A stretch of 64,000 nt of DNA from an uncultured Bacilli bacterium (GCA_910578855.1 CAJTRV010000004.1:5551-69550); one strand, 5' to 3'. Positions 797 to 62,840 are shown, numbered from the stretch's first letter. The notes: generated by a model not told the origin, from the sequence alone. A program made the numbers and translations.

Positions 797-840
797 AGAA
801 TCCTCCTCTACCTTATTATAACATGTATCATATTATTTTT

Positions 841-875
841 GACAATTTCCTTATGATTGTGTTAGAATAACCATA
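841..875 (+). promoter_or_regulatory. Putative sigma-A type promoter for the 892 gene (TTGACA, 17-nt spacer, TGnTAGAAT), in the region divergent from dnaE.
   Basis: ttgacaatttccttatgattgtgttagaat is followed by GAGGAG and the ATG at 892. Confidence 0.3.
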
Positions 876-891
876 AGAGTGAGGAGTATAT

Positions 892-1794: not shown

Positions 1795-1841
1795 ACATTT
1801 TTCATATAAAAATTGTTGATTACTCAACAATTTTTTGTTCT

Positions 1842-2615
1842 TTATTTAGCTATCATTTTATCGACAATTATCTTAATATCCCGTTCATTAAACGGCTTTT
1901 GTAAGACATCGATAATCGGATATTGAAATGCCTTCTTTACTTCATCATCATTGCCAATTCCAGTAATAATTGAAACCGGAATTTTCGTAAACAATTGTTG
2001 CCTCTGAAAATAATCTAATACCGTAAACCCATCGACATGGGGCATATTTAAGTCTAGTAACATTCCAACAATATCATATTGATTGGATTCAACAATAATT
2101 CGTAATGCTTCTTCCCCATCACTAGCCGTTACAACTTGATATTGATCCATAAATAGCTTCTGAATAAACTTTTGGATAATATCAGAATCATCGACCACCA
2201 AAATAGTTTTATCAGTTGCGACGGTAACTTTCTCATGATCAATTGCAACCTCTCGCTGTTTTCCTAAATACGTTAATCCAATTTGAATCATCTGTTTAAA
2301 TTCCTTGATTAACTCATCATAGTGTTCATACACATAATAAATATCATTTGCACGACTCTTTTCTTCGTGTTGATAACACATATCCCCTAGTACATCAAAC
2401 CCAAAATACCGAGCATCACTTTTTAAGGCATGAACTAAAATAGAGTAATTTCCCATATCAGCGATCTCTTTAAACGCTTTTAATTGTTGAAGACGCTCCT
2501 CAATATCTTGAAGAAAATCCGCCAATGTCTCATCATATGTCTCCATATCTCCAAATAATTCCAAACTCTTTTGAACATTTACTCCATGTTGAAGCAATAA
2601 ATTTACATCTTTCAT
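1842..2615 (-). CDS. Hpt domain plus receiver (REC) domain phosphotransfer protein.
   Basis: HALKSDARYFG (an Hpt HxxKG-type motif) lies in the N-terminal half. The C-terminal half has a CheY-like signature: ILVVDDS...DLNMPHVDG...K. Confidence 0.65.
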   Translation of the reverse strand: MKDVNLLLQHGVNVQKSLELFGDMETYDETLADFLQDIEERLQQLKAFKEIADMGNYSILVHALKSDARYFGFDVLGDMCYQHEEKSRANDIYYVYEHYDELIKEFKQMIQIGLTYLGKQREVAIDHEKVTVATDKTILVVDDSDIIQKFIQKLFMDQYQVVTASDGEEALRIIVESNQYDIVGMLLDLNMPHVDGFTVLDYFQRQQLFTKIPVSIITGIGNDDEVKKAFQYPIIDVLQKPFNERDIKIIVDKMIAK

Positions 2616-2643
2616 ATCAATTCTCCTATTTTCTAATCTTTTC

Positions 2644-4485
2644 CTATAAAAATTTCCGCAATACTCTATCTAATTCAGCTCGATCAATTGGTTTTGAAAG
2701 ATAATCATCAAACCCATCTTGCAAATACTTCTCCTTCATTCCGGTAATCGCATTGGCAGTTAAAACAACCGTTGGAATCATAAAACCAGGTATTTTCTTT
2801 AATGATTTTAATGTTTCAACACCACTCATTCCTGGCATCATATCATCTAATAATATCAAATCATACTGTTCACCATTATTAATACGTGTAAGACATTCTG
2901 CTCCTGATGATAAACAAACAGTCTCAACCTCATAATTTAATAATAAGCGCGCAGCTACTTTTAAATTAATACGATTATCATCCACCAATAATACCTTCTT
3001 ACCCTTAGCAACAAACGGTTTTTGGTCCGCGCTTATTAATTTTTCTTGAGCAACTTTTCGCTCCTCTGTAATCGGGATAATTTTCTGATCGATTGCCACC
3101 GTAAAACAAGATCCCTCTCCATAGGTACTCTGAACGACAATTCGGCCATGCATTAATTCAACCAATTTTTTGGTAATTGCTAGCCCAAGTCCCGTTCCTT
3201 CAATGGTTACATTTTTCTCAACATCAAAACGCTCAAACTTGGTAAATAACTTCTGAATATTCTCTGGCTTAATTCCGATTCCAGTATCTTTTACTGATAT
3301 AATTAAGCGACAGATATCATCTTGAATCACCGAACTCATCTGCAACTCGATGGATCCATCTTTCGTATATTTAACCGAATTGGTCAGTAGATTAACCATA
3401 ATCTGCTTTAAGCGCATACTGTCACCATATAATATGGGCGGCATATCGGCAGCCAAATGAAAGTGGAACGCCAAAAACTTATTTCCAATCCGGACTTTCG
3501 TTAACGAGACAACTTCATCAAAGATTTGCCGCGGATGATATTCCGTATTTACAATCTCTAATTTACCAGCTTCAATCTTAGAAATATCCAAAATACCGTT
3601 GACAATTTCTAACAGATTATTAGAGGCGATCAAGATATCTTGAATTTCATCTTGAGTATGTTCAGGTAAATTCTCTTCTAGTAAGACTTGACTGAATCCG
3701 ACAATCGAATTTAATGGTGTTCGAATCTCATGTGACATATTAGATAAAAACTCTGATTTTGCTTCGTTAGCGCGGACCGCCTGTTCCCGCGCTAGTTTCA
3801 GTTCATGAATTAATTTCAAATCAGGATTCTCAATAGTAAAATACATTAAGAATGTTACAAATGTCTCCATCGATGTAATAAGTAATAAACTAGGATTATA
3901 TTTTTGTAATAGCATAATTACCGTTCCAAACGTTAATAGAAAAAATAATGGTAAATATTTCTTGGAACGAATATTTTTTAAATTCGCAATTAAACTAACA
4001 ATACTGATTATAATACAAATGATCGACACCAAATAAACCAAATCAATACTAGGACCATAAGAATATATCTGTCCAGCAGTATTAACAAATGATATTGGTA
4101 AAAAAATTAATAATACAATAATAATCCAATAACTTATAGTAACAAAATTCATTACTTTCCTAATATTTGTACTAATATCATAGTGAATTTTATCTTCTTT
4201 ACTAAAGGAAATAATAAAAATATAAACAGTAAAAATTAAAATCCATGTTAATAAATAAACCAAATATAATTTTGAAATAACTAAATTATAAAGGGGATAA
4301 GAATTCATATTTAACACAGAATAATAATTTAATAATTCGATCATTAAACCGAGAAAATTAACGACAATCAAAATAGAAAAAATTTTATTTTCAACACTTT
4401 TCACTTTATCTTTTCTAAAAAAAACCGTCATTAATGAAATACTATAAAATAAACTTCCGACGATTAAGATAACACTTCCTATCAT
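2644..4485 (-). CDS. Hybrid sensor histidine kinase with a multi-TM N-terminus, HisKA, HATPase_c and a C-terminal REC domain.
   Basis: About 6 predicted TM helices. H-box [15 protein letters not shown]-box DTGIGI...GTGLGLAI. C-terminal [15 protein letters not shown]...[14 protein letters not shown]. Confidence 0.8.
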
Positions 4486-4603
4486 GAAACATCATCCTTT
4501 ACTATCTGTCAATATTATAGCATAGAAAAAGAGAAAAAGTAAACACACTTTTCCCTTTCACTATTTAGTAAAAAATACTAATTGTTAACATCCATTTATT
4601 TCT

Positions 4604-6496
4604 TTAGCGTTTATAACAATACACCTTTGAATTTTCCTTTTTATATTGATTAGCCGTTAATAACTGGCCTGTCTCTATACTAGGTTTCACCATAAAATCA
4701 CCATCATACCCTTCAGCCTTTAACAAGGGTTGACTACGCTTTCCGCAACCGCTTAACGGAAATGACTCTTTCATACCACGAATTCGATAATACAAACAAT
4801 TTAACACTTCATCAGAAAAAACATTCTTACATCTTTTTTCAGCTCCCATTAAAACATTCGTGACATTAATCTTTACTCCTGGTTGAAACTCAATATGCAC
4901 AACAATCTTATCATCATTTTTATCATCTTTTACCATGACTAACTCGCATGACAAAATATGTTTGGTATCTTTTAATATCTCATCGCTTATTAAAAATAAG
5001 GGAATTTTTTCGCCATTACTACTAATAAATTCATTTCCTATTCTTCCTTTGATATGAATAGATCCAAATTGATCAATATATCCATAAACTTGACAATCTC
5101 CCCATCTTTTTCCTGTATTATCATAAATAAAAAATTGCCTCGTCGCTTCCGGATTATTTTTATATCCTTTCATTGTACAATTAGAATTGGCAACTAATCT
5201 CCCTAGTTCATTGACTCCACATCGCTTCCCGTTCTGATCCAAGATAGCATACTCAGCCAAAGCAAATGGTTTTAAACCAAATGATTTTTTCCGTAGCCAA
5301 CATGATAATCGCTTTTCTTGTAATGCCTTATAGAGAGTAAAAAATAATCCACCGTGTTCACAATCTCCCCCACCAATCGAAAGGCAAACTGGCGTATAAG
5401 GTAAATGAAACAGATCCTTTCCCGCTTTAGTAGTTTTCAAAGCTTTATTAATAAACTTTTCTTCATTAGGTGCGACCGGCTCACCTACCGCAGTTGGTAT
5501 TATCAAGAATGGCAATTGTAAATTTCGGTATGACTCATCAAATCTAATTTTCTTCGCCGCATTTAACCAAAAACTTGTAGTAGCTGGAACAAAATTAGGT
5601 TTGTTAATCATCAAACTAGTCAAAAAGAAATTTTGATCATAGATTGGCTCTAAGGCAACCGTCCCATGCTGCGATAATACATCAGAAATACTCGTAATTA
5701 AATCCGTATTCGAATGAGCTGGAATATGCGCTAATCCTCTAATATTTTTCATTGCTGGTAATCCTGAAACATCAGAATCATGAATCCGCGCCATGGTAAC
5801 AAAACTTCTAATTCGATGAACAATTGCCTTGGGTCTTGTTGAATGGGTAGAACCACTACTATATGTAATGGTGAATTCATCATCTAAATTGGTATTGGCA
5901 GGAACAATATCCTCCATATCATCACCAAAAGCTGCAAACTCTTTCACATCGATGATTTTATCATTTTCACATTGAAATTCTGGAATTTTATTCCTAAATT
6001 CGCAAAAAATCTTATCTACCTCATCATAAGGATCTATCCCGTCCTTCAATGAACTAGTCAACGAAACCAAAACAATCTTTTCAATGCTACTTTCTAAAGT
6101 TATATTCTTAATATCTTCATATTGACAGTCAGTCGCAAAGAATACTTTTGAACTACAATCATCGATAATCTTTTTTATATAATCCTGATCAAACTGACTT
6201 CCAAAAAGATTAATTTTAGCTCCAAGCATACTAATAGCCAATAAAAGATAAATAAGTTCTGGTGTATTAGATAAGCATGCTGATACTTCATCACCTTGTT
6301 TTATTCCTAGTTTTCGTAATGACTTTGCATACCTATTTGCTTCTTTCAACATCTCTTGATAAGAGATGTTGGTACCGCGGTACCATAGGGATGGCGCATC
6401 TAAATTATCTTTGTTTCGCTCATAAATGTCTTGAAACCACGACTCGTTATGTTGTTCTATTTCACTTAGTACTTCTTTGATATCAGATTCTTTCAT
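4604..6496 (-). CDS. Adenylate-forming enzyme of the AMP-binding / acyl-CoA synthetase-like superfamily.
   Basis: 630 aa. Degenerate A3 motif TYSSGSTHSTRPKA. C-terminal region ...GYKNNPEATRQFF...GDCQVYGYIDQFGSIHIKGR is typical of ANL enzymes. Confidence 0.55.
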   Translation of the reverse strand: MKESDIKEVLSEIEQHNESWFQDIYERNKDNLDAPSLWYRGTNISYQEMLKEANRYAKSLRKLGIKQGDEVSACLSNTPELIYLLLAISMLGAKINLFGSQFDQDYIKKIIDDCSSKVFFATDCQYEDIKNITLESSIEKIVLVSLTSSLKDGIDPYDEVDKIFCEFRNKIPEFQCENDKIIDVKEFAAFGDDMEDIVPANTNLDDEFTITYSSGSTHSTRPKAIVHRIRSFVTMARIHDSDVSGLPAMKNIRGLAHIPAHSNTDLITSISDVLSQHGTVALEPIYDQNFFLTSLMINKPNFVPATTSFWLNAAKKIRFDESYRNLQLPFLIIPTAVGEPVAPNEEKFINKALKTTKAGKDLFHLPYTPVCLSIGGGDCEHGGLFFTLYKALQEKRLSCWLRKKSFGLKPFALAEYAILDQNGKRCGVNELGRLVANSNCTMKGYKNNPEATRQFFIYDNTGKRWGDCQVYGYIDQFGSIHIKGRIGNEFISSNGEKIPLFLISDEILKDTKHILSCELVMVKDDKNDDKIVVHIEFQPGVKINVTNVLMGAEKRCKNVFSDEVLNCLYYRIRGMKESFPLSGCGKRSQPLLKAEGYDGDFMVKPSIETGQLLTANQYKKENSKVYCYKR

Positions 6497-6580
6497 AATA
6501 CCTCCATCAAACTTTACTACTCACTCTTATCATAACACAGTTAAATGAAATATAGAACTACTTTAATCATAAATATCTTC

Positions 6581-7672
6581 TTATTTTTGATAACGACTAA
6601 TATTTAAAATAATTCCAATACTAGACATCGTAATAAGCAAGCTAGAGCCTCCATAACTTAGAAATGGAAGTGTAACCCCAGTTACGGGAATTAAGCCAGT
6701 TACAACCATTAAATTTAAAATCGCTTGGAAGCCAATTTGAAAGGCAATCCCAAATGTCAAATACTTCGCAAACATATCTTGACTCTTTCTAGCAATCTTA
6801 AACGCACGCGTAAGAATAATAAGAAACAAACCAACGACAATAATGACCCCTAGAAAACCAAACTCTTCACTGATAATGGAGAATATAAAATCAGTCTGTG
6901 GTTCTGGTAGATAGAAATGCTTTTGTCGCGAATTTAAAAAGCCATAGCCAAATAATCCTCCAGGACCAATCGCATATAACGATTGAATGATCTGGAAGCC
7001 ACTACCAAGTGGATCCTTCCATGGATTTAAAAAGGATAATATCCGTTCTAACCGATAGGGAGCTACAGCAATCAAGCCAACAATCCCGGCCATTCCAAGC
7101 ATTCCCATGCGTAAGAAAAATTTGAAAGGAACACCGCCAACAAAGATAAGCCCCATAATACTCATCACGATAATCATTCCGGTTCCAAAGTCAGGTTGTA
7201 ACATAATAATTCCAAAGACAAGTAAGGTAAGGCTTAGAATCGGTAAAACCCCTTTTTTGATATCAGTCATCTGCTTTTCATTCTTAACCAGATACTTCGC
7301 TGTAAAAATGATAAGTGCCAATTTCATGAACTCACTTGGTTGAATCCCAAATGAGCCAATTCCAAACCAGCTACGACTTCCATTCCGAACCGTTCCAATC
7401 CCAGGAATTAAGACCAACACCAATAAAATAAAACAGGTAATAACCAAAGGTGTAGCCTTCTCATAATAAAGTCGATAATCAATTTTACTAATAACATACA
7501 TAAAAACTAGTCCCAAGAGAAAGAAGACACCTTGATTAATGACAAATTTAAATGGATTATGAAACTTATATTCAGCCCATACATAAGAAGCGGAATAAAT
7601 CATGATAATTCCAAAGATGGAAATCAAGATCACACTAATCAGAAGTCCATAATCAATATTCCCTTTTTTCAT
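6581..7672 (-). CDS. ftsW: FtsW/RodA/SpoVE family peptidoglycan glycosyltransferase (cell-division / SEDS protein).
   Basis: 363 aa with about 10 TM helices and SEDS-family conservation. Located in the dcw cluster downstream of mraY. Confidence 0.8.
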   Translation of the reverse strand: MKKGNIDYGLLISVILISIFGIIMIYSASYVWAEYKFHNPFKFVINQGVFFLLGLVFMYVISKIDYRLYYEKATPLVITCFILLVLVLIPGIGTVRNGSRSWFGIGSFGIQPSEFMKLALIIFTAKYLVKNEKQMTDIKKGVLPILSLTLLVFGIIMLQPDFGTGMIIVMSIMGLIFVGGVPFKFFLRMGMLGMAGIVGLIAVAPYRLERILSFLNPWKDPLGSGFQIIQSLYAIGPGGLFGYGFLNSRQKHFYLPEPQTDFIFSIISEEFGFLGVIIVVGLFLIILTRAFKIARKSQDMFAKYLTFGIAFQIGFQAILNLMVVTGLIPVTGVTLPFLSYGGSSLLITMSSIGIILNISRYQK

Positions 7673-53157: not shown

Positions 53158-53853
53158 CTACTTTCTAAGTCTTACTGCTTCATAAATAATAATCCCGGCA
53201 GCCACCGAGGCATTTAGACTATTGGTCTTACCCTTCATAGGAATACTGGCAATAAAATCACAGTTTTCTCTGACCATTCGCGCCAAACCGTCACCTTCAT
53301 TTCCTATCACAATCGCACATTTTCCACGATAATCAATATCGCTATAGTCTTCACCCTCCATATCTGTTCCAACAATCCAAAACCCCTGTTTCTTTAAATA
53401 ACGCATCGTATTATTTAGATTGGTTACCTGGGCTATTTTCATATAATCAATCGCCCCCGTACTCACTTTAATAACCGTTGGGGTTACCCCAACAGATCGA
53501 TGTTCTGGAATAATAATTCCATCCACTCCAGCCGCTTCACAAGTACGAATAATCGCACCTAAGTTATGAGGATCTTCTAAATGATCGAGAATGACAATGA
53601 GTGGGTTGTCCCCTTGAATTAGGGTTTCTATTTCATCATACTGAAAATCAGGAACTTGCAAAACAATTCCTTGATGATTTCCTTTAACCATTTGATCCAA
53701 CTGTCTTTTTTCGACATAGCGAATTGGAGCTGCAGTCGTGGCAAGGGCACCTATGACTTCGTTATCCCGAAATTGTTTGGATAAGTAAACCCGTTTTATT
53801 TTCTTGTTCGTCTTAATTGTTTCTAATGCGACATTTTTTCCATAGATATACAT
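53158..53853 (-). CDS. rlmB: 23S rRNA (guanosine-2'-O)-methyltransferase RlmB (SpoU/TrmH family; YacO).
   Basis: SpoU motifs (ILDHLEDPHNLGAIIRT, VIGNEGDG). N-terminal substrate-binding domain. Confidence 0.85.
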   Translation of the reverse strand: MYIYGKNVALETIKTNKKIKRVYLSKQFRDNEVIGALATTAAPIRYVEKRQLDQMVKGNHQGIVLQVPDFQYDEIETLIQGDNPLIVILDHLEDPHNLGAIIRTCEAAGVDGIIIPEHRSVGVTPTVIKVSTGAIDYMKIAQVTNLNNTMRYLKKQGFWIVGTDMEGEDYSDIDYRGKCAIVIGNEGDGLARMVRENCDFIASIPMKGKTNSLNASVAAGIIIYEAVRLRK

Positions 53854-54230
53854 AATTTTTCTCCTAACATTATTTCCATAATTTCTTGAATTCGATTAAA
53901 GTGACCATTTAGATAATGATACCCAATTAATGCTTCTAAACCAGTTGATTCTTTATAAGTTACAATGTCAGTATGCTTAGGATGACGAGATCCTTTATGA
54001 TTCCTGGCACGTTTCACAATCTGAATCTCTTCGGTTGTTAATGATTCCTGATCTAGTAACATTTTTAAATAACGACTTTGGGCTTTGGCACTAACATATT
54101 GAACAGCTTCTTTCTGAAGATCATTCACTTTACAAAGACCTTTTTTTAATAACAGAGTCCGAATAACAACTTCATAAATACTATCACCAACATAAGCCAA
54201 CGCCAAAACATTTAGGCAATCTGTTTTCAT
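53823..54230 (-). CDS. mrnC: Mini-ribonuclease 3 (MrnC / YazC).
   Basis: LNVLALAYVGDSIYEVVIRTLLL is the RNase III signature. 135 aa. Confidence 0.8.
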   Translation of the reverse strand: MKTDCLNVLALAYVGDSIYEVVIRTLLLKKGLCKVNDLQKEAVQYVSAKAQSRYLKMLLDQESLTTEEIQIVKRARNHKGSRHPKHTDIVTYKESTGLEALIGYHYLNGHFNRIQEIMEIMLGEKLCISMEKMSH

Positions 54231-55108
54231 ACAAGTTCCTCAATTCGATCAAAGGTAATTCCTTTTATTAGACCACTTTTCATATCGTTTAAAATGAGAT
54301 TCATCACGCGGTCATAATCAATTTCCCCACCCTGAATCATACATCCTCGACGTTTACCAATGATATCCAACGTGTTAACCATATCTTCTTCATCAATAGT
54401 CGTAATTCCATAACGTGATTCTAACTCCTGAGGATAATAAGTATATAGCATGTTCAAAATGTAACAGACCACATCATAAATAGGCAATACTTCCTCTTTA
54501 ATTGCCGTTAAACTTGCGAGATTAAGGGCAATAGTTTGATCATCAAACTTCGGCCATAGTACCCCTGGTGAGTCTAACAATTCAAGACGCTGATTGATGC
54601 GAATCCAATCCAATGACTTCGTCACTCCAGGACGGTTTCCAACATTGGCAACCTTTTTTCCAACTAAGCGATTGATCAATGTGCTCTTTCCAACATTGGG
54701 AATCCCGACAACAAGGACCCGAATACGTCTTGATTTCATTCCTCTAGCAATCATATCATCCATCTTATCTTGCATCATCGCTTCAGTCTTTTTCACTATT
54801 CCGGTTGTACTTTGTTGATGCTCTAAATCAACCCCCATTACTTGATAACCTAGTTGTTCATAATACCGAATCCAGCGCTCTGTTTCTTTTTTATCACATA
54901 GATCCATCTTGGTCATAATTAACAACTTCGGCTTATTTCCAATAATCGATTCAATATCTTGAATCTTTGATGAGTATGGCATCCGAGCATCGATTACTTC
55001 ATAAACAACATCAATAACACTCATTTTTTCCTTCATAATTCGCTTGGCTTTCGCCATGTGACCGGGATACCAGTTGATTGTCGTATTTTGTCCTTTATTG
55101 TCGTTCAT
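54227..55108 (-). CDS. rbgA: Ribosome biogenesis GTPase A (RbgA / YlqF).
   Basis: Circularly permuted GTPase motifs (IDARMP...TKMDL...GIPNVGKSTLINRL). Start at MNDNKGQ, preceded by AAGGAAGTGAAACAA. Confidence 0.85.
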   Translation of the reverse strand: MNDNKGQNTTINWYPGHMAKAKRIMKEKMSVIDVVYEVIDARMPYSSKIQDIESIIGNKPKLLIMTKMDLCDKKETERWIRYYEQLGYQVMGVDLEHQQSTTGIVKKTEAMMQDKMDDMIARGMKSRRIRVLVVGIPNVGKSTLINRLVGKKVANVGNRPGVTKSLDWIRINQRLELLDSPGVLWPKFDDQTIALNLASLTAIKEEVLPIYDVVCYILNMLYTYYPQELESRYGITTIDEEDMVNTLDIIGKRRGCMIQGGEIDYDRVMNLILNDMKSGLIKGITFDRIEELV

Positions 55109-55559
55109 TTGTTTCACTTCCTTTAGATTTATTTTTATATTTAACATATTCTTCAATTTTTTTATTATAGTTCTTTAAATCTTCTACAAATTGAGGCTTA
55201 AATTGATTTAAATAATCAATGATTAAATCAGCATATTCATCAATATTTTCATCATCAACTATATCTATGAGATATTTATTGATTCCTTTTTTAGTATTTA
55301 TTCTTTCTACATAAAAGGCTAACAAATTAGTTGGACCTATTTTTTCTTTTGCTGATAAAACAATAGAAATCAAATTTTCTCTTGATGCATAATATCTCGG
55401 TTTAAATCCATTTGACCTAGAAAATAATATCAAAGTACAACCAATAAATAATTTATCTGAACCATTTTTAGGAAATGTTTTGTTTGCAAATTCAATTAAA
55501 CTTTCTGTATTACCCTGTTCGTAATCATCATATAGTTCCATTAAAATTCTATTTATCAT
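55095..55559 (-). CDS. Hypothetical protein, the variable last gene of cassette A. Its 3' end reads through the rbgA RBS and start.
   Basis: 154-aa ORF. Its stop overlaps the rbgA start by 14 nt. Confidence 0.4.
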   Translation of the reverse strand: MINRILMELYDDYEQGNTESLIEFANKTFPKNGSDKLFIGCTLILFSRSNGFKPRYYASRENLISIVLSAKEKIGPTNLLAFYVERINTKKGINKYLIDIVDDENIDEYADLIIDYLNQFKPQFVEDLKNYNKKIEEYVKYKNKSKGSETNERQ

Positions 55560-55569
55560 TTTATCTCCT

Positions 55570-55845
55570 CTATTTATATAGACTTTTTATAACTCTATTA
55601 ATGCAATCTTTGGCACTTCTGTTATTATTTGAAAAACTAATTTTTACTAATGTCCCATTTACTTTAAAAGCATATGGATTCTTTGTGGAAGCAATAAAAT
55701 CCAATATTCTTTCATTACTAGGTTTTCTTCTATCTATTTTTATATTTGTTATTTCATCCACATCTTCTAATTTTACATCATCAAGATTTACATTTCTACA
55801 TCTTTCTAATTTTTCTGCTAATTCTTTAATATTATATTTATTCAT
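55570..55845 (-). CDS. Small conserved cassette protein (about 91 aa), paralog of 57697..57996.
   Basis: The N-terminal 50 aa are about 96% identical to the cassette B copy at the protein level, and about 97% at the DNA level over about 145 nt. The C-terminal half is diverged. Confidence 0.5.
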   Translation of the reverse strand: MNKYNIKELAEKLERCRNVNLDDVKLEDVDEITNIKIDRRKPSNERILDFIASTKNPYAFKVNGTLVKISFSNNNRSAKDCINRVIKSLYK

Positions 55846-55927
55846 AAAATCACACTCCATATTAATTATAAAATCAAATACAATTAATGTTAAATGTGCA
55901 ATTTTTTATTATAAATGATAATCTTTA

Positions 55928-56953
55928 CTAATCTTTATTATTTTCTGAAGTTTCTAATAATTTTGTACTTTCAATAAATTTATCGAAGTCAGAAATATAT
56001 AATTGGTCTTGTTTTTCCTTAAACTTATCATACTCTTTATATGCAAGTTCTTGAGCCACTTTATGAGATATTTTTCCTGCATCATGCAGTATTTCTTGCC
56101 CATTAAATTGTAAAAACGCATCCAATTTTTCTACCCAATCTTTCATTGTCATCGCATTATGATTTTCTGCTTGTAATTCAGCATAATCTAAATACATAGT
56201 AACTATTCTATTTAAGTTTTTTAATTCTTTTTCTGTCAAATAATTTTTAGCAATATCAACATCATATTTATAAATCGTTCCATCAGGAGAACCTGTCCAA
56301 TTTGTTAAACCCATATTGTCTTTTTCTGAATCAACTCTATTATAAATAATCTCTGCAGCAGTATTACCAGTGACTGAATAATGAAGTTTATTCTGCACAG
56401 TTTTAAAAAAAGTTTTAGTGATTTCTGAATCTTTATCATAATCAACACTACAAGATGAATATATATCTGTTATCTTTTGGTAAAATCTTCTTTCACTAGA
56501 ACGAATATTTCTAATTCTTTCTAGTGTTCTTTCAAAATAATCTTCTCCAAAAATATAATTTGGATTTTTTAATCTCTCGTCATCCATAACAACGCCAGTA
56601 ATTAAGTATTCTTTTAGAACTTTTGTTGCCCATATTCTAAATTGCGTTGCTTTTTTGGAATTAACTCTATAACCTACAGCAATAATCATATCTAAATTGT
56701 ATATTTTAGATTTTCTTCCACCTGTACTTTCGTCGGAAATTCCGACAGAAGTTTCTTCCTTAAGTTCACCACTATTTAATATATTATTAATATGTTCTGT
56801 TATGGTACTTCTACCTACTCCAAATAATTCAGCAATCAAATTTTGCGTCAACCAAATATCATTATTAATTAATAATACATTCACTTTGATATCATTATTA
56901 TCATCACGATATATTAAAAAGTCGTGGGTAGTTATTTGTAAATTATTTTTCAT
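55928..56953 (-). CDS. RhuM-family protein (the first gene of cassette A, a member of the KilA-N/Bro-N-related superfamily).
   Basis: WLTQNLIAELFGVGRSTITEHINNIL and KIYNLDMIIAVGYRVNSKKATQFRIWATKVLKEYLITGVVMDDERL are hallmark RhuM regions. Confidence 0.75.
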   Translation of the reverse strand: MKNNLQITTHDFLIYRDDNNDIKVNVLLINNDIWLTQNLIAELFGVGRSTITEHINNILNSGELKEETSVGISDESTGGRKSKIYNLDMIIAVGYRVNSKKATQFRIWATKVLKEYLITGVVMDDERLKNPNYIFGEDYFERTLERIRNIRSSERRFYQKITDIYSSCSVDYDKDSEITKTFFKTVQNKLHYSVTGNTAAEIIYNRVDSEKDNMGLTNWTGSPDGTIYKYDVDIAKNYLTEKELKNLNRIVTMYLDYAELQAENHNAMTMKDWVEKLDAFLQFNGQEILHDAGKISHKVAQELAYKEYDKFKEKQDQLYISDFDKFIESTKLLETSENNKD

Positions 56954-57215
56954 TTATTTTCACCGCTTTCTTATGTTCTTAAATGTCGTAATCACCTATC
57001 TAATTTCTATTATAAATAGCGCAAAAATTACTATATTTTTATGAATTTTTATTGTTTTTTATCATTTTTTAATGAAAACATGCAAGATATAAATTGGATA
57101 GTTTCCTTTATTTATAAGGGTTTAAGGGTGTTCTTAATTAAATCGTAATCAACCAGTTTATGTTTGCCTGATTTTGTCGATTTTCATTATTCATTTATTT
57201 CACTTCCTTCAATTC
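56954..57215. repeat. Direct repeat R2, the cassette boundary. It is a degenerate rbgA 5' end (57150-57213) followed by a ~150-bp regulatory region carrying two TGATTACGA motifs (fwd TCGTAATCA at 56986-56994 and 57143-57151).
   Basis: About 85-90% identical to 58900-59147. Contains aaggaagtgaaataaATGaataatgaaaatcgacaaaatcaggcaaacataaactgg on the minus strand. Confidence 0.7.
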
Positions 57216-57704
57216 AATATTATTTTCTAATAAAACGCTTTCTAATGTTTCATTTTCGTTTATAATATATAAGTTCTCATAATTTCTTTGCAAACAATCC
57301 TCATAGAATGGAACAAATACATTTCCCAAGCCACTAATAAAACTTTCATTATTACCTCGATTTATACACTTTCTCTTTACATCTTCCCAATTATTAATAT
57401 TAGGATATGCTATACTGTATTTAATATTATTTTTATCGAAATAATCGAAGTGTTCTGGTTTTAATTGAACTAAAACAACATCATATTCCTTTATAGCCAT
57501 TCGAATGGCTTTATAGTAATTCTTTGGCCATTCACTATTTACTTCTCTTTTCGTTCCTTTTCTTGCTTCAACAGGTACATTTTCAAGATTAGTATTAATA
57601 TATTTAAAATTACTCGATTCTAAATCAATTACATTCCTATATTTTTTACCCAAAATGCTTTTTCCACACGTTGCAAATCCTGCAATTATTATTCCCTTAG
57701 CCAT
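57195..57704 (-). CDS. P-loop NTPase / small kinase-like protein, the variable gene of cassette B.
   Basis: Walker A motif GFATCGKS near the N-terminus. 169 aa. Its stop abuts the pseudo-rbgA ATG of R2. Confidence 0.5.
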   Translation of the reverse strand: MAKGIIIAGFATCGKSILGKKYRNVIDLESSNFKYINTNLENVPVEARKGTKREVNSEWPKNYYKAIRMAIKEYDVVLVQLKPEHFDYFDKNNIKYSIAYPNINNWEDVKRKCINRGNNESFISGLGNVFVPFYEDCLQRNYENLYIINENETLESVLLENNIELKEVK

Positions 57705-57996
57705 TATTTACCTCTTGTCTATATAAATTTTCTAAAATTTTAGTTAAACAATCATCTGCAGTTAAATTACTATTTTCTGAAAATCTTATTCTAACTAATT
57801 TCCCATTGACTTTAAATATATATGGGTTCTTTTTCTTCATTACAAACGCTAATATTCTTTCATTACTAGGTTTTCTTCTATCTATTTTTATATCTGTTAT
57901 TTCATCCACATCTTCTAATTTTACATCGTCAAGATTTACATTTCTACATCTCTCTAATTTTTCTGCTAATTCTTTAATATTATGTTTATTCATATT
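57697..57996 (-). CDS. Small conserved cassette protein, paralog of 55570..55845.
   Basis: MNKHNIKELAEKLERCRNVNLDDVKLEDVDEITDIKIDRRKPSNERIL... The start is at MNKHN; the track ORF is extended upstream. Confidence 0.5.
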   Translation of the reverse strand, partial: NMNKHNIKELAEKLERCRNVNLDDVKLEDVDEITDIKIDRRKPSNERILAFVMKKKNPYIFKVNGKLVRIRFSENSNLTADDCLTKILENLYRQEVNNG

Positions 57997-58056
57997 ATAC
58001 CTTCTTTCTATAATAATTTTATTATTTAGAAAGAAATAACACAAATGTGCAAAATA

Positions 58057-58899
58057 CTAGATATTATCTTTTTCTCCTAATAGTTTTATCTTTTCTGCAT
58101 TATTAAGTATATCAAGTTGATACTTAGCAATGCTACTTAATATTTCAAATCTTTCTTCTTTGCTTTTTCCTTCTTTAATTAGTTCTGCATTATGTGATTC
58201 TAAATTAGATAATACTGTTAATTCATTTATCGATGCATAATCTCTAACATTTGAGTTTTTTGCTAAATTCGGATTAAGTTCTCTCCATCTTTTAGCAGTT
58301 GTGTTAAATAAGGCAACATTTAAAATATCTGCTTCTTCTGCATACTTTAACCATTCTCTATCTTTATAATAATCATTATCAGGTAATATATAATTTTTAA
58401 TTGCATCTGTATGAATAAGATAATTATTTTTGGTTAAGATTCTTTTTATATCCCATTCCCTATTTTGATTTTCTAACTCTTTTAGTCTTTCAAATTCTTT
58501 TATCAAATATAGTTTAAAAACCGGACTAATAGAAGATGCAAATTCAAAAGCAATGTCTTTATGAGCATAAGTTCCACCATATTTTCCACGCTTCGAATAT
58601 ATCCCAATTGCATTTGTTTTACTACACCATTCTGTAACACTTAGTGTAAAAGTATGAAGTCCTGCCTCACTTTTAAACCCGTCGAATTCGACGGAATTAA
58701 AATTTGGATTGTAAATTGACTCCCAAGTACCTAAAAATTCTAAAGTAATTCTATTTCTTAACCAATTTCTGATAACATCATCTGATGTAGATTTTCCTTC
58801 TTTAAACTTGGTAAAATCAGAAATACAAATATAATCGCTATCATTTATATTTGTTATGTTCACTTTAATATTTTGAACTTCAATTATTTTGTTTGGCAT
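58057..58899 (-). CDS. KilA-N domain-containing protein, the first gene of cassette B.
   Basis: DYICISDFTKFKEGKSTSDDVIRNWLRNRITLEFLGTWESIYNPNFNSVEFDGFKSEAGLHTFTLS...RGKYGGTYAHKDIAFEFASSISPVFKLYLIKEFERL matches the widespread KilA-N family pattern. Confidence 0.7.
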   Translation of the reverse strand: MPNKIIEVQNIKVNITNINDSDYICISDFTKFKEGKSTSDDVIRNWLRNRITLEFLGTWESIYNPNFNSVEFDGFKSEAGLHTFTLSVTEWCSKTNAIGIYSKRGKYGGTYAHKDIAFEFASSISPVFKLYLIKEFERLKELENQNREWDIKRILTKNNYLIHTDAIKNYILPDNDYYKDREWLKYAEEADILNVALFNTTAKRWRELNPNLAKNSNVRDYASINELTVLSNLESHNAELIKEGKSKEERFEILSSIAKYQLDILNNAEKIKLLGEKDNI

Positions 58900-59147
58900 A
58901 TATTCGCCTCTTTTCCATGTCCTTAAAATTCGTAATCACCTATCTAATTCTTATAATAAATAATACCAAAATTATTAGTTTTTATATTTTTAATTATTTT
59001 TTAATGAAAATATGCAAGATCTAATCTAGATAATTTTCTTTATTTATAAGGGTTTAATGGTATTCTTAATTAAATCGTAATCAGCCAGTTTATGTTTGCC
59101 TGATTTTGTCGATTTTCATTATTCATTTGTTTCACTTCCTTTATTAT
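58900..59147. repeat. Direct repeat R3 (cassette boundary) with the same architecture as R2. TCGTAATCA motifs lie at 58930-58938 and 59075-59083. The rbgA-like RBS plus 14 codons lies at 59082-59142.
   Basis: ggaagtgaaacaaATGaataatgaaaatcgacaaaatcaggcaaacataaactgg|ctgattacga on the minus strand. Confidence 0.7.
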
Positions 59148-59312
59148 TTAACATTGAGAATTTAAAAAATTTGCAATTTGTTCTAAATTTTTAAATATTT
59201 TTCCATCATTTCTTATAACTATTCCTCTTGCACCATATCTCATTCTAGGCTCATTCATTTCAATCATACTTTCGCCTAAATCTTCATCAGTTATTTTACA
59301 TATTAATTTCAT
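59148..59312 (-). pseudogene. Truncated NUDIX-hydrolase-like N-terminal fragment (54 codons).
   Basis: MKLICKITDEDLGESMIEMNEPRMRYGARGIVIRNDGKIF resembles a NUDIX N-terminal strand. It is followed by an early stop. Not in the ORF track. Confidence 0.35.
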
Positions 59313-59338
59313 TAATATCATCTCGCTTTCATTTTATA

Positions 59339-59863
59339 TTACAACTTGTATTCTTTTATCTCACAATTCTTCAATCCACGATTTAAAAACCAACCATCAT
59401 TAATGCCATCAAAATATGCACTAAAAGCTTTTGAAACACCACTATGTGCAACAATTAAAACACTTTTATAATTTTGAGTTTTAAGTTCATCTAAAAAATT
59501 ATATATTCTATCAAAAAAGTCTTTTATATTTTCAGAGGTTCCATATTGAATTGTTGTATTATAATTCCAATATTCATCACGATTAGTTATTTCAAGAGGT
59601 TTACCACTTAAATCTCCACAACTTCTTTCTTGAATTCTATCATCAATAATAATTTCATTATTATTAGCATTAATAATATTAGCTGTGTGTTTTGCCCTAA
59701 TTAAAGGTGAAGAAATTATAATATCAAAGTTTATATCTTTAATTTTGTCTCTTAATTCTTCTGCTTGACTTATTCCAAGTTCAGTTAAATCTTCATCTTT
59801 TGTATTATATTGTTTCAATGCATTATGAGGTACTTCACCATGTCTTACTATATATATTTTCAT
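59339..59863 (-). CDS. Histidine phosphatase (phosphoglycerate-mutase-like family), in cassette C.
   Basis: IYIVRHGEV (RHG catalytic motif) plus a second His in VAHSGV. Confidence 0.7.
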   Translation of the reverse strand: MKIYIVRHGEVPHNALKQYNTKDEDLTELGISQAEELRDKIKDINFDIIISSPLIRAKHTANIINANNNEIIIDDRIQERSCGDLSGKPLEITNRDEYWNYNTTIQYGTSENIKDFFDRIYNFLDELKTQNYKSVLIVAHSGVSKAFSAYFDGINDGWFLNRGLKNCEIKEYKL

Positions 59864-59989
59864 TTATTGACTCCTTTTTTATAGAATTTTTATAGTAACA
59901 TTTTATCATCGAGGATATATATTTATTTTATTATTGATACCATTATATTAAAATCATACTCATTTTTACTATTTTTATCTGTTTCTAAG

Positions 59990-60717
59990 GTTATATGATT
60001 ATTCTCTGTTTTTCCTTTAAAATAAAGCAAATCAGCTATTTTAAATTGTCGTGTCATTTCGCGTACACAAGCCAGGAAGTCAGGCCCATATGTTCTTTAT
60101 TTGAATCAACTCTATTATATATAATTTCTGCTGTTTGTTTTGATACAGCAAAATGCATTTTGTTTTGTACTTTTTTAAAAAATTCAATTGATATTGGAGA
60201 TTTAAAATCATAGTCAATACTTGTAGCATATATATCTGTTATTTTTTGATAAAATCGCCTTTCTGATAACCTTATTTCTCTAATTTCTTCTAATAATTTT
60301 TCAAAATAATCTTCTCCAAAAATATAATTTGGATTTTTTTATCTTTCGTCATCCATAACAGCATCATTAATTAGATATTCTTTTAAAACCTTTGTTGCCC
60401 ATATTTTAAATTCTGTTGCTTTTTTAGAATTGATCCTGTATCCAACTACAATAATTACATCTAAATTATATATTTTGGTTTTATATTTTTTACCATCAGA
60501 GGCAGTTATCGAGGATTCCTCGATAACTGAATCCTGATTTAATGCATTATCTTTAGAAATTGCAGATTTTTTTATTTCCTTTTCATATAAATCTCTAGCA
60601 CCTTTAGCAACTCCTCCGCCTCTTTTTGCTACATTTAAATTTTCTTTTAAACCTTGCGGATGTTCTTCTCTTGCAATATCTCGTGTTGCAATCTCTCCTA
60701 TATTTGTTCACTAGCTT
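59990..60717 (-). pseudogene. RhuM-family gene remnant. It carries a nonsense mutation (DDER* at about 60345) and a C-terminal deletion. It is fused downstream of the DinD-like reading frame via a frameshift near 60700-60720.
   Basis: DNA about 85-90% identical to cassette A RhuM (compare 56561-56600 with 60331-60370: tctctcg versus tctttcg creates a TAA). The fragment ..KIYNLDVIIVVGYRINSKKATEFKIWATKVLKEYLINDAVMDDER* is present. Confidence 0.55.
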
Positions 60718-61263
60718 TCATTCCAGACCACCCCTTATAGATTTCATTGGTTTGGTTATGCCTCCTTCTTTCCAAACATCTGTAAGTTTAAATCTATCTA
60801 CAACCCCCATTAGTCTTGCCTTAATCCATTCATCAGAGTACCCTTTATTACGATAATAATTTACTGCTCTATTTATTGCAATTTCAGGATCAAATACTTC
60901 ATCAATCCTCTCACTACCAAGACTCGCTAACCAAACTTTAAATGGTTCGGCCTTAGGGCTAGAAACTGATTCAATTAATCTTAATATTCCATTTGTATCT
61001 AAAGTATCAGTTATACGATTTTTACCATCCCGGGCCTCCATTTTCAACTGCACGATTTCTTCGTGCAGTTCACTTCCTTCATAAATTAATCTTCTTTTTA
61101 AACCGCTCCAATAATTTCTTGGGATTTTTGCTTCAGTTAATACACTTATTACATCAGCAACGCTAAAATAATACTCTTCTTTTTCACTATCCCAAATGCT
61201 TCTTATTTCTTTACCTTCAAATAAATTTGATATTGTTTCTAATTTGTTGTTCAAATATAACAC
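60718..61263 (-). CDS. DinD-like (DNA-damage-inducible protein D-like, Bro-N/KilA-N-related) N-terminal portion, the first gene of cassette C. Probably a disrupted gene.
   Basis: EEYYFSVADVISVLTEAKIPRNYWSGLKRRL parallels the DinD N-terminus (FWSARDLAPLLDYRDWRNFQKVL). The frame is broken at 60718 relative to the downstream continuation. Confidence 0.45.
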   Translation of the reverse strand: MLYLNNKLETISNLFEGKEIRSIWDSEKEEYYFSVADVISVLTEAKIPRNYWSGLKRRLIYEGSELHEEIVQLKMEARDGKNRITDTLDTNGILRLIESVSSPKAEPFKVWLASLGSERIDEVFDPEIAINRAVNYYRNKGYSDEWIKARLMGVVDRFKLTDVWKEGGITKPMKSIRGGLE

Positions 61264-61400
61264 CTCTTTTCTATGGTCTTAAATGCCGTAATCATCTTTC
61301 TAATTCTTAAATAAAAATATGGAAAATTTAAAATCGTACAACCTCCTTATTTATAGGGATTTACTTAAGAGTGCAATAAATCGTAATCAAACAGTTAATT
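61264..61400. repeat. Direct repeat R4, an older degenerate copy of the cassette boundary. It has two TGATTACGA-type motifs (61286-61294 variant CCGTAATCA, and 61381-61389). Only codons about 7-14 of the rbgA-like segment remain.
   Basis: cttaaatgccgtaatcatctttctaattcttaaata...ttatttatagggatttacttaagagtgcaataaatcgtaatcaaacagtt aligns with R2 and R3. Confidence 0.55.
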
Positions 61401-61503
61401 CTGACTGATGAAAAACTTTTTTGATTACTTTCGCTATTCTTTTTTCTTGTCTCATTTTTCCCTTTTGATATATATCCATATTTTTCACTTTCTTTTCAAT
61501 AGT

Positions 61504-62064
61504 TTAAAGTTTTTTACCCATTACAATGGGTCTATCATCATAAATATGAATTCTGTTATTTATATCACTAATTAATGCAACAAGTTTTCTAGGATTTTCT
61601 ACTCCTTCAAAACTCATTCCATTTTTTATTTGTTCAATTAAATTATTAGCATAAAAATTAAAAGATATATCTCCATAATTATTTTTTTCTCTTGCAATTC
61701 CAATATGTTCTATATCAGATATATTTTCTATCCTAAATCCATTTTTAGAATTATATAGAGCTATCCTTTTATTGGTAATAAAATATTCATTATTTTTCTT
61801 TTTATATTTTAAGAATATATTATAAACTAATCCATAAATTAAACAAATTGTTAATATGCCCAAAGTAAGAAAAATTATCAAAATTTCAAAATTTAGTATT
61901 TCCCCACTTTTTATACCTATTATAATTAATATCCAAAATAATAACAATACGGCAAAACCTAATAAAAATCTACCATATTGTTTACTAGTCTTACTAACGT
62001 TTGAAACACCATAGAATAATATTTTTTCATTCTCTTCCAATTTATTTATAAACTCATTTTTCAT
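61504..62064 (-). CDS. Membrane protein with a bacterial PH (bPH_2/YdbT-like) domain.
   Basis: Two TM helices, then FITNKRIALYN...ISDIEHIGI, typical of a bPH domain. AT-rich. Confidence 0.45.
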   Translation of the reverse strand: MKNEFINKLEENEKILFYGVSNVSKTSKQYGRFLLGFAVLLLFWILIIIGIKSGEILNFEILIIFLTLGILTICLIYGLVYNIFLKYKKKNNEYFITNKRIALYNSKNGFRIENISDIEHIGIAREKNNYGDISFNFYANNLIEQIKNGMSFEGVENPRKLVALISDINNRIHIYDDRPIVMGKKL

Positions 62065-62201
62065 TTATCTCTCTCCTTACAATTTATTAAATATAATACC
62101 ATTTAATAAAAGAGAATTCCTTTATTAAAATCATTCTAGTTTTATCCACTATAGATTCCTCATAAGATAACCATTTATTCATTTCGAAAATGCATTTATT
62201 T

Positions 62202-62840
62202 TTATTTAAAGATTACATATGGAATGCCCATTTTATGATAAACATCATAAGCTCGTGGCCACGAGAACATTCGGGCAATTAATAAATTATAAAGTTCATC
62301 AAACATGATGATAGAACACAATGTAATTGAAAGCATTAAAAATAATTTTTTATTCATCCGTTTCGCAAGAAAAAAACACATAGGAATTATGACATACATC
62401 AACAATAAACTAGATAACCCAAAGAACATAACACTTCTTAAACAAACAAAACCATGAATGTTTCCAAAGTTTAAAATTTCCGAATTATAATCCCAACAAC
62501 GCATTCCATTTCCAATGATATACATGCCCAAACCTGATATATATTCGAGAATCCCAGTTGCAAAAAAACTAATTAAAAATACCCAGAATGGTTTTTTTCG
62601 ATGCTTGTAAGTTAATAGATAAATCATAATTGAACCTGTCGCATATATATTAATCCATGGTAAGAAATTACCACCTCGCCAATAAAATTGTTTCATACCA
62701 CCATTAAAATAATAAAATATAAATTCATAGATCCAACCAAAAATTCCGGTGATAACGATTAACAGACAACAAATTCCTAGCATCGTCCATTTATCAAACG
62801 AATGATTATTTTCTATATAATGTTTATACCATTTCTTCAT
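62202..62840 (-). CDS. Hypothetical polytopic membrane protein.
   Basis: 212 aa, about 6 TM helices, AT-rich codon usage. Confidence 0.4.
   Translation of the reverse strand: MKKWYKHYIENNHSFDKWTMLGICCLLIVITGIFGWIYEFIFYYFNGGMKQFYWRGGNFLPWINIYATGSIMIYLLTYKHRKKPFWVFLISFFATGILEYISGLGMYIIGNGMRCWDYNSEILNFGNIHGFVCLRSVMFFGLSSLLLMYVIIPMCFFLAKRMNKKLFLMLSITLCSIIMFDELYNLLIARMFSWPRAYDVYHKMGIPYVIFK

Follow-up and report, generated by a model that had tools for sequence, protein, structure and literature searches.

Tandem repeat-bounded cassettes at the 5′ end of rbgA in an uncultured gut Bacilli bacterium and their candidate relationship to DUF6870-associated serine recombinases

A 64,000-nt stretch of the genome of an uncultured Bacilli bacterium (GCA_910578855.1, CAJTRV010000004.1:5551-69550; hereafter the window) carries three head-to-tail cassettes (unit sizes 2306, 1932 and ~2083 bp) before the essential ribosome-assembly gene rbgA; we call them A, B and C, A being nearest to rbgA. 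The cassettes are discrete, repeat-bounded units at an rbgA site defined to the base, and elements encoding large serine recombinases (LSRs) share that site. Outside such arrays the small protein family DUF6870, encoded in cassettes A and B, is obligatorily linked to LSR genes, and the modules that contain it have spread between species and swapped their cargo. The cassettes have no recombinase of their own, and no LSR gene was found anywhere in the 64-kb window. On balance, and with our confidence leaning only slightly in its favour, we read the array as a set of LSR-less, non-autonomous integrative cassettes that accreted at an LSR attachment site in rbgA. The recurring pattern (junction and DUF6870 repeats, and the same layout in many species) is far beyond chance. 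Every gene between 54.2 and 63.9 kb lies on the minus strand, and the G+C content falls from 35-40% to 22-29% upstream of rbgA, out to ~62.8 kb.

Repeat analysis and direct reading showed that each cassette closes with a duplicate of the rbgA 5′ end, comprising the ribosome-binding site (RBS), the start codon and ~12 codons (55075-55125, 57161-57211 and 59093-59143). The leader copy is followed by the core AACTGG, by (C/T)TGATTACGATTTA, by an A+T-rich stretch with CCTTATAAATAA, and by a conserved block with a second GGTGATTACGA ~30 nt ahead of the start of gene 1. These boundary repeats are in register, with three copies each of the RBS/leader, of the core plus TTGATTACGATTTA, and of the promoter block. 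Within the window, the junction repeats share 90% identity over 163 nt, and the identity of the leader repeats to the copy next to rbgA is only 75-78%. Among 15 junctions from 10 species, the core region AACTGGTTGATTACGATTTA was the best-conserved block. Every junction also holds two direct copies of TGATTACGA ~150-200 nt apart, one abutting the core (57142-57151, 59074-59083 and 61381-61389) and the other ~30 nt before gene 1 (56986-56996, 58930-58940 and 61285-61295). The junctions gave no Rfam or hairpin signal of a structured RNA.

A leader alignment located the site within rbgA. In relatives with an empty site the leader MVNINW precedes the conserved YPGHM, with Trp only 4 codons in, and cassette-bearing genomes have leaders of the MNNENRQNxxNINW type. 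By this comparison of empty and occupied relatives, the core AACTGG is the Trp codon of INWYPGHM. Cassette A supplies the RBS and the first ~12 codons of rbgA in the window, and the rbgA-proximal junction copy is the actual 5′ end of the gene.

DUF6870 genes outside arrays lie 65-220 nt upstream of one to four LSR genes. All 19 of the 19 DUF6870 loci in IMG/VR have two or three LSR genes 65-170 nt downstream, and six of them run on into rbgA. In phage and plasmid collections, all four of the four weak DUF6870 matches have one to four or more LSR genes immediately downstream; one of them, a Vescimonas record, is annotated as 'DUF6870 family protein' and then 'recombinase family protein' genes. 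A phage or plasmid origin of DUF6870 was rejected, since the family is nearly absent from those collections and the four matches are all LSR-linked. Two of the comparison loci (cited here by their L numbers), L010 and L025, show the order PemK, DUF6870, a 570-aa LSR, a 526-aa LSR and rbgA. The identical DUF6870 protein is found on contigs where the module comes after ArdC, PrgI and a VirB4-type ATPase, that is, in an integrative and conjugative element (ICE). This ICE-borne DUF6870-LSR-LSR module stands upstream of rbgA in at least four host backgrounds, one of them with the downstream synteny of the window. In a windowed identity profile, the LSR module was identical up to ...CAATTGGTA and host-specific beyond it in five hosts, and likewise in L112 and L113. 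The boundary falls at the same TGGTA position as the cassette core. A replacement of ~600 nt of rbgA by the LSR element, suggested by BLAST extension, was discarded, as the profile puts the boundary at the Trp codon. The DUF6870-LSR-LSR module, which comes with an ECF-like sigma factor and MazEF, can itself be exchanged as a block (L088 7957, L091 16629, L010 4253): in L091 another module lies downstream of the same conjugation genes, and in L010 and L087 the same LSR block is preceded by unrelated genes.

The DUF6870 genes of the window are followed by a gene for a 154-aa protein (cassette A) or for a P-loop protein (cassette B) and are considered orphans, because the LSR context is present elsewhere and missing here. 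In a phylogenetic tree, 13 of 14 orphan copies formed one clade nested among LSR-linked copies of rbgA-targeting elements, and a median dN/dS of 0.26 among the orphans indicates purifying selection. A RhuM, KilA-N, Bro-N or YhcG gene precedes about 14 of 18 orphan copies, so the pairing of gene 1 with the small protein does recur elsewhere, in support of the initial annotation of this DNA. DUF6870 also occurs behind PemK, AAA_33 kinase or unknown genes. No work on DUF6870 was found in the literature library searched.

Comparison with related arrays showed how the units are exchanged. The junction, KilA-N gene and DUF6870 gene of cassette B have 91-92% DNA identity to L027, L043 and L040, and the junction, RhuM gene and DUF6870 gene of cassette A have 90% to L038; RbgA of these hosts is only 51-56% identical to that of the window. 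The RhuM protein of cassette A is 97% identical in L038 and 95% in L018, and the KilA-N protein of cassette B (also matching phrog_2657, 'transcriptional regulator') is 97% identical in L043 and L027. In every case, the homology between species breaks exactly at the DUF6870 stop codon. Therefore, gene 3 is exchangeable cargo with no fixed partner. KilA-N plus DUF6870 is followed by a histidine phosphatase in L027, by a HAD hydrolase in L032 and L043, by a nucleotidyltransferase in L040 and by two ASCH proteins in L081-86. Bro-N plus DUF6870 precedes a HAD hydrolase in L027, L034 and L038, RhuM plus DUF6870 precedes the 154-aa protein in L034, and a YhcG nuclease plus DUF6870 precedes two ASCH proteins in L040. 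Homologues of the 154-aa protein were found in L034, L032 and L043, and a homologue of the histidine phosphatase of cassette C comes after a DUF6870 gene in L027 and L034. The order gene 1, DUF6870, enzyme is present in at least 11 related species, the junction sequence is kept between their cassettes, and some cassettes have no DUF6870 (L018, L023, L045-48). Among 106 open reading frames (ORFs) of arrays from 20 species, the top families were DUF6870 (9), RhuM (8), Bro-N (7), HAD (6), GNAT (6), KilA-N (4) and ASCH (3). Decay grows with distance from rbgA, and the proximal units are intact, in the window as in L034, L040 and L014; this gradient fits the entry of new units at the rbgA-proximal junction. 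The same array was seen in six independent samples of one species.

A scan for RbgA in one genome per species gave 80 loci, the nearest being uncultured Bacilli/RF39-like metagenome-assembled genomes (MAGs) with up to 72% identity. Typical relatives have the order rimM-trmD-rplS-lepB-rbgA. Of the 47 closest species, 23 had inserted genes at the site, four had an empty site with lepB adjoining rbgA, and 14 had a contig end ≤700 nt upstream; the other six were unscored, the flank at hand containing neither lepB nor a cassette marker gene. These counts uphold the proposal that the rbgA site is a hotspot for compact, discrete units. The array also lies outside any prophage, with no structural or lysis genes around it in the window, and the arrays of relatives are situated between lepB and rbgA. 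The contig ends suggest that the repeated junctions systematically break short-read assemblies here, which would account for the frequent MAG breaks just upstream of rbgA in this clade. Contig starts near rbgA include those of L001, L003, L004, L012, L019, L024, L028, L030, L031, L035, L039, L042 and L044. Synteny 3′ of rbgA (53823-55108 of the window compared with L081-L087) varies among relatives: in the window, as in L089, rbgA is followed by mini-RNase III, SpoU methylase and a sigma factor, and in other relatives by rnhB and topA.

According to the reading that we favour, crossover would take place between TGG and TA of AAC TGG TA, at the Trp codon of INWYPGHM within the first rbgA codons, the site used in related gut Bacilli by DUF6870-LSR-LSR elements, one of them an ICE. 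A cassette would consist of a left-end site (TTGATTACGATTTA), a conserved promoter and 5′ untranslated region, gene 1, DUF6870, a swappable cargo gene and a right end. Gene 1 (RhuM, KilA-N or Bro-N) would be a defence candidate of the single-gene kind, and the cargo would occupy the slot of the recombinase genes in autonomous elements. The right end would give rbgA a new RBS, start codon and ~12 codons; as it rebuilds a usable rbgA 5′ end and the core, the next element could enter at the rbgA-proximal junction. Older cassettes would be pushed outward and decay, cassette C being the oldest. We infer that pairs of serine recombinases associated with DUF6870 move the cassettes, either in trans or, through accretion, in cis. 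They may be derivatives of DUF6870-LSR elements whose recombinase genes were replaced by cargo. DUF6870 may be a recombinase accessory (e.g. a directionality or targeting factor), kept so that the cassettes stay excisable and capturable, with genes 1 and 3 as independent cargo. A stronger version, which we regard as possible and on the doubtful side, would have DUF6870 as an unrecognised accessory (for directionality or site choice) of multi-gene LSR modules and, at the same time, the arrays as an LSR-driven cassette-capture platform of RF39-like gut Bacilli. Units of ~2 kb that keep only DUF6870 and attachment sites would then be captured rbgA-proximally, be expressed from their own promoters, drive the essential rbgA and circulate between species, as a Firmicute counterpart of integrons or of the staphylococcal cassette chromosome (SCC).

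Several results weigh against the proposed accretion of LSR-dependent cassettes. The AlphaFold model of DUF6870 (pLDDT 82) found no solved structural relative and, because of this, its role is read from gene context only. The left end of the LSR-bearing ICE was not recovered from self-repeats of L010 and L025 or by breakpoint inspection; a metagenome scan with ArdC returned the same conjugation genes with a different integration module, and a look-up of an ArsR gene led to an unrelated locus. The TGATTACGA motif was absent from the LSR-element sequence in hand, and none of the LSR elements examined had a leader of the cassette type. The arms to the left of the core also differ, being ...GTAATCAAC in LSR elements and ...AAATATAAAC in cassettes, and for this reason cross-recognition between LSR element and cassette is not assured. 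Plain homologous recombination over the ~270-nt junctions, DUF6870 and rbgA could be the source of much of the mosaicism, with no ongoing site-specific mobility. Finally, the comparison loci are all metagenome assemblies, in which repeat-driven misassembly is possible, although the six samples mentioned above agreed in their array.

Carried to its end, the recombination argument makes the cassettes fossil scars, i.e. inert remnants left by deletions in LSR elements, ICEs or prophages that were once present at rbgA. Their diversity would arise only through homologous recombination after DNA uptake, anchored in rbgA, lepB, the junction repeats and DUF6870, and the retention of DUF6870 would have some other cause, or none at all. 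We think this unlikely. The junction core is better conserved than its surroundings in 10 species, the proximal cassettes are intact with DUF6870 under purifying selection, and in many species cassette and host meet precisely at the Trp codon. Moreover, the modules share ~90% DNA identity between hosts and, because the RbgA proteins of these hosts are only ~50-56% identical, there is little flank homology for exchange. Inert remnants would nevertheless fit the lack of a recombinase gene in the window, the identical array in six samples of one species, the decay of cassette C and of distal cassettes elsewhere, breakpoints that fall on conserved blocks (possible recombination anchors) and phage tail genes that adjoin an array on one related contig. 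Even less probable, in our view, is that a tyrosine recombinase (like that of the streptococcal rbgA ICEs, or an integron-like integrase encoded elsewhere in the genome) moves the cassettes and that the DUF6870-LSR link is coincidental. Tyrosine integrases of Streptococcus ICEs are documented to insert their elements into the 5′ end of rbgA, where direct repeats overlap the region upstream (PMC4701971). The ~50-nt leader repeat is similar to the identity segment on which such integrases act, and an imperfect inverted repeat surrounds the core (AAACATAAAC-TGGYT-GATTACGATTT). However, the elements that end at this core in the clade encode LSR pairs right beside the junction, no tyrosine recombinase family was reported beside any array or LSR module examined, and the leader repeats have diverged from the rbgA-proximal copy as described above. 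No recombinase family of any kind was among the Pfam families listed for the fetched arrays.

The initial annotation had taken the three genes of each cassette for a functional triad, a phage-conflict system (abortive infection, toxin-antitoxin-like or anti-defence) made of a KilA-N/Bro-N-type sensor or DNA binder, a small adaptor or antitoxin, and an enzyme effector. The recurrent gene order in the window and in at least 11 species, the tight packing or overlap of the genes, and the purifying selection on cassette DUF6870 agree with such a system, as do the phage-encoded relatives of the KilA-N, Bro-N, P-loop and histidine phosphatase proteins. PADLOC lists the gene 1 families as candidates, and the plating of T7, T5 and T4 was reduced by a PDC-S05 gene with a RhuM domain. 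We nevertheless consider a triad distinctly improbable. One KilA-N plus DUF6870 module (91-92% DNA identity) precedes five different third genes, a HAD hydrolase stands behind either KilA-N or Bro-N modules, and similarity is lost exactly at the DUF6870 stop. The genes that precede DUF6870 further include PemK, an AAA_33 kinase and unknown ones; outside arrays DUF6870 is coupled to serine recombinases and not to gene 1 families, and some cassettes lack it. Genes 2 and 3 have no significant PADLOC match, and the PDC-S05 activity was reported for a single gene. Genes 1 and 3 are thus shuffled independently around DUF6870, and the triad is best seen as mobile-element anatomy: cargo, recombinase companion, cargo.

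A nucleotide-processing enzyme at the variable position is not supported either: the 154-aa protein is unassigned and the P-loop protein belongs to an uncharacterised small-kinase-type family. Where NAD- or nucleotide-signal enzymes had been proposed, the third genes of related arrays encode generic small enzymes (HAD, GNAT, ASCH, APH, kinases). The cassettes are also not wholly uncatalogued, the gene 1 families being PADLOC PDC-S05, PDC-S22 and PDC-S13. These are treated as single-gene candidates, with reported activity only for the PDC-S05 representative: in a preprint, one RhuM-domain PDC-S05 gene gave ~1000-fold protection against T7 and T5 and also reduced the plating of T4. Therefore, a phage-conflict role of gene 1 as a single gene is plausible. 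In the PADLOC check nothing tied DUF6870 or the third genes to defence; some cassette proteins merely have phage-encoded relatives.

In staphylococci, composite SCCmec islands and ccr-less pseudo-SCC elements occupy orfX/rlmH and are mobilised by CcrA/CcrB, a pair of large serine recombinases. The rbgA array resembles SCC in its single site in a housekeeping gene that is conserved and ribosome-related and has its coding end restored by the element, in its tandem units between direct repeats, in the occurrence of recombinase-less units beside LSR-pair elements, and in its resistance- or defence-type cargo. Direct-repeat-bounded units in an intact housekeeping gene and an LSR pair at the same site in five host backgrounds were both found here. 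However, SCC uses the 3′ end of rlmH; at the 5′ end of rbgA the element must supply the promoter, RBS and start codon. The recombinases of the rbgA site are not Ccr orthologues (90 bits with the NCBIfam CcrB model, whose cut-off is 900), the units measure no more than ~2 kb, DUF6870 is carried, and the hosts are uncultured RF39-like gut Bacilli. Also comparable are the cis-mobilisable elements (CIMEs) of ICESt1/ICESt3, with their accretion-mobilisation, and the streptococcal tandems of ICEs and integrative and mobilisable elements, which are flanked by attachment sites, lack recombination and transfer genes, are stacked at an ICE site, and are thought to derive from or ride with an autonomous element. 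The cassettes, as candidate CIME-like units, share their right-hand core with the ICE/LSR element and contain no recombination or conjugation genes, the left end of the ICE not having been recovered. CIME systems differ in that their integrases are of the tyrosine type and that they insert at gene 3′ ends (fda, for example); at rbgA, serine recombinase pairs are associated and a recombinase-companion gene is kept in each unit.

The streptococcal ICEs in the 5′ end of rbgA, where the upstream region of an essential gene is replaced (Ambroset et al. 2016, PMC4701971), share the target gene and the end of that gene with our array. They differ in having tyrosine integrases and being full-size ICEs, and no cassette arrays were described for them. 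Integron arrays likewise consist of ordered small units (mostly one to three genes) with recurring boundary sites, entry at one end, decaying older units, and a cargo rich in acetyltransferases, small enzymes and toxin-antitoxin genes. However, each unit at rbgA has its own promoter and the array sits in the 5′ end of an essential gene; no IntI or other integrase family was found among the listed neighbours and no attC hairpins were detected, the junction being a linear motif. Elements that accrete in tandem, and riders without a recombinase (CIMEs, pseudo-SCC, phage-ICE tandems), are well established from reviews and papers. What is new here is a serine-recombinase version at rbgA in uncultured gut Bacilli, with very small cassettes, conserved junctions that carry promoters and the link to DUF6870.

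If correct, the proposed origin of the array would give DUF6870, an uncharacterised LSR companion, a concrete and testable role; LSRs are wanted for genome engineering, and directionality factors for them are difficult to identify. The proposal would also offer a precise, widely used attachment site (AAC TGG TA in rbgA) with natural ~2-kb mini-substrates. Furthermore, it would describe a route by which defence candidates and small modifying enzymes, including acetyltransferases, kinases, phosphatases and an ABC-F protein, are exchanged between species of uncultured gut Bacilli with small genomes. For defence discovery, the array is a caution that a recurrent gene order can mirror the architecture of a mobile element instead of a functional system.

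Table 1 Features of the rbgA array and of the region upstream, by position in the window
Feature	Position	Strand	Basis and details
rbgA (ribosome biogenesis GTPase A), target gene	54227-55108	-	ORF; homologues in 80 species
J3	55070-55125	-	Repeat family D5; cassette-borne RBS (AAGGAAGTGAAA), ATG, leader codons, core AACTGG 55075-55070, rbgA body
Cassette A gene 3, 154-aa protein (cargo)	55095-55559	-	Stop overlaps rbgA start
Cassette A gene 2, DUF6870, 91 aa	55570-55845	-	PF21757, 71.1 bits (cut-off 24.4)
Cassette A gene 1, RhuM-family protein, 341 aa	55928-56953	-	PF13310 E=4e-109; PADLOC PDC-S05 E=4.9e-140, full-length
J2 (B/A boundary)	56954-57211	-	Repeat families D2, D3, D5, D9; leader remnant 57211-57159, core AACTGG 57158-57153, left end TTGATTACGATTTA, promoter/5′UTR block, second GGTGATTACGA 56996-56986
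Cassette B gene 3, 169-aa Walker-A protein (cargo)	57195-57704	-	Uncharacterised small-kinase-like family
Cassette B gene 2, DUF6870, 98 aa	57697-57993	-	PF21757, 60.5 bits (cut-off 24.4); overlaps gene 3 start by 8 nt
Cassette B gene 1, KilA-N protein, 280 aa	58057-58899	-	PF04383 E=3.9e-19; PADLOC PDC-S22 E=6.8e-116, full-length
J1 (C/B boundary)	58900-59143	-	Repeats, direct reading; leader remnant, core AACTGG 59090-59085, CTGATTACGATTTA, promoter block, second GGTGATTACGA 58940-58930
57-aa ORF, probable gene remnant	59148-59321	-	No similarity detected
Cassette C cargo, histidine phosphatase (branch 1), 174 aa	59339-59863	-	PF00300 E=3.5e-36, residues 3-171
Cassette C gene 1 pseudogene, Bro-N/DinD-like (PDC-S13) and RhuM-like fusion	60072-61275	-	Pfam, PADLOC, direct reading
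J0, right part	61285-61396	-	Repeat families D3, D9; core AACTGT 61396-61391, left end TTGATTACGATTTA 61390-61377, promoter block, GATGATTACGG 61295-61285
LSR-element-type rbgA leader remnant (MDIYQKGKMRQEK...)	61397-61479	-	Cut exactly at ...GAATTAAC TG
Two low-GC (21-30%) membrane-protein genes, 186 aa and 212 aa (CmpB-like, PF06541)	61504-62840	-	GC profile, Pfam

The genes of the window (Table 1) confirm part of the gene order given by the initial annotation. Cassettes A and B are organised as described, and the small protein said to be conserved between them is DUF6870 in both; the two proteins are 74% identical, and the first 151 nt of their genes are 95% identical (repeat family D4). 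Cassette C departs from the scheme, its first gene being a decayed pseudogene and DUF6870 being absent from it. A KilA-N-superfamily module in every first gene is too broad a description: the domain of B is KilA-N and that of C Bro-N, and in A, the N-terminus of RhuM has only a sub-threshold match to Bro-N (E=0.033). Homology among the three gene 1 proteins was rejected as well, no pairwise similarity being found between them. The 154-aa protein has no match in Pfam, NCBIfam, PADLOC or PHROG. The Walker-A protein of cassette B has no Pfam match of its own and belongs to a family of ~168-aa proteins with 525 cluster representatives (phrog_4182, E=3e-23). Named kinase families were considered for it and discarded, profile matches being only marginal (kinase domain of C. 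thermocellum Pnkp, E~0.008), as were AAA_18 and AAA_33, which matched marginally and in few homologues only.

The first gene of cassette C, described earlier as a DinD-like/RhuM chimera, is indeed a Bro-N/DinD-like part fused to a RhuM-like segment, and no longer a gene. The Bro-N/DinD-like part extends over three frames (61275-60537), with two frameshifts and an internal deletion, and its Bro-N fragment is an ORF at 60718-61263 (PF02498). The PDC-S13 match is strong (E=6e-69); one frame spans only model positions 8-167 of ~286 aa, so no intact ORF is left. The RhuM-like segment (60575-60072) has an in-frame stop and a 3′ truncation. The histidine phosphatase was correctly recognised, its N-terminus being MKIYIVRHGE with the RHG motif. 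The supposed NUDIX-like fragment is the 57-aa ORF, for which this identity was abandoned after searches of Pfam (E up to 5), PDB and PHROGs without a match.

At J0, upstream of cassette C, a remnant of the long leader is severed at ...GAATTAACTG and joined to the cassette left end directly after ...AACTG. The remnant matches the rbgA leader of L010, L020, L037, L039 and L042, and in L010 and L020 the long leader is directly 3′ of the LSR genes. From this fusion of an LSR-type leader with a cassette left end it follows that the cassette entered a site rebuilt by an LSR-type element. The two membrane-protein genes sit where L010 and L020 have their LSR genes. No junction motif was found upstream of them, and the pair is possibly an older cassette.

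No intrinsic terminator was found on the minus strand across the array and, because of this, rbgA is probably transcribed from the cassette promoters. A promoter scan was uninformative in this AT-rich DNA, giving fewer hits than in shuffled sequences. The best promoter-like match of the region, TTAACA-17-TATAAT (11/12; 55865-55893, minus strand), lies between RhuM and DUF6870 of cassette A, and cassette B has a related TTGCACATTT motif 5′ of DUF6870. DUF6870, the cargo gene and rbgA may have a promoter of their own.

Loci L105-L107, which cover 7 kb on each side of DUF6870, contain arrays reaching >12 kb upstream of rbgA. Their cargo includes two GNATs, UDG, flavodoxin, SdpI, an ABC-F-type double ABC protein, a peptidase S51, an MBL-fold protein matching the Anti-Pycsar Apyc1 family and three different small P-loop kinases. 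On L104 (positions 1-7594; IMGVR_UViG_3300006149_000131), siphovirus-type tail genes (Dit_N and a dockerin-bearing protein) are directly upstream of a RhuM remnant, which is followed by an APH-family phosphotransferase, a cassette junction and a Bro-N gene. A prophage may have accreted at the same site in L104.

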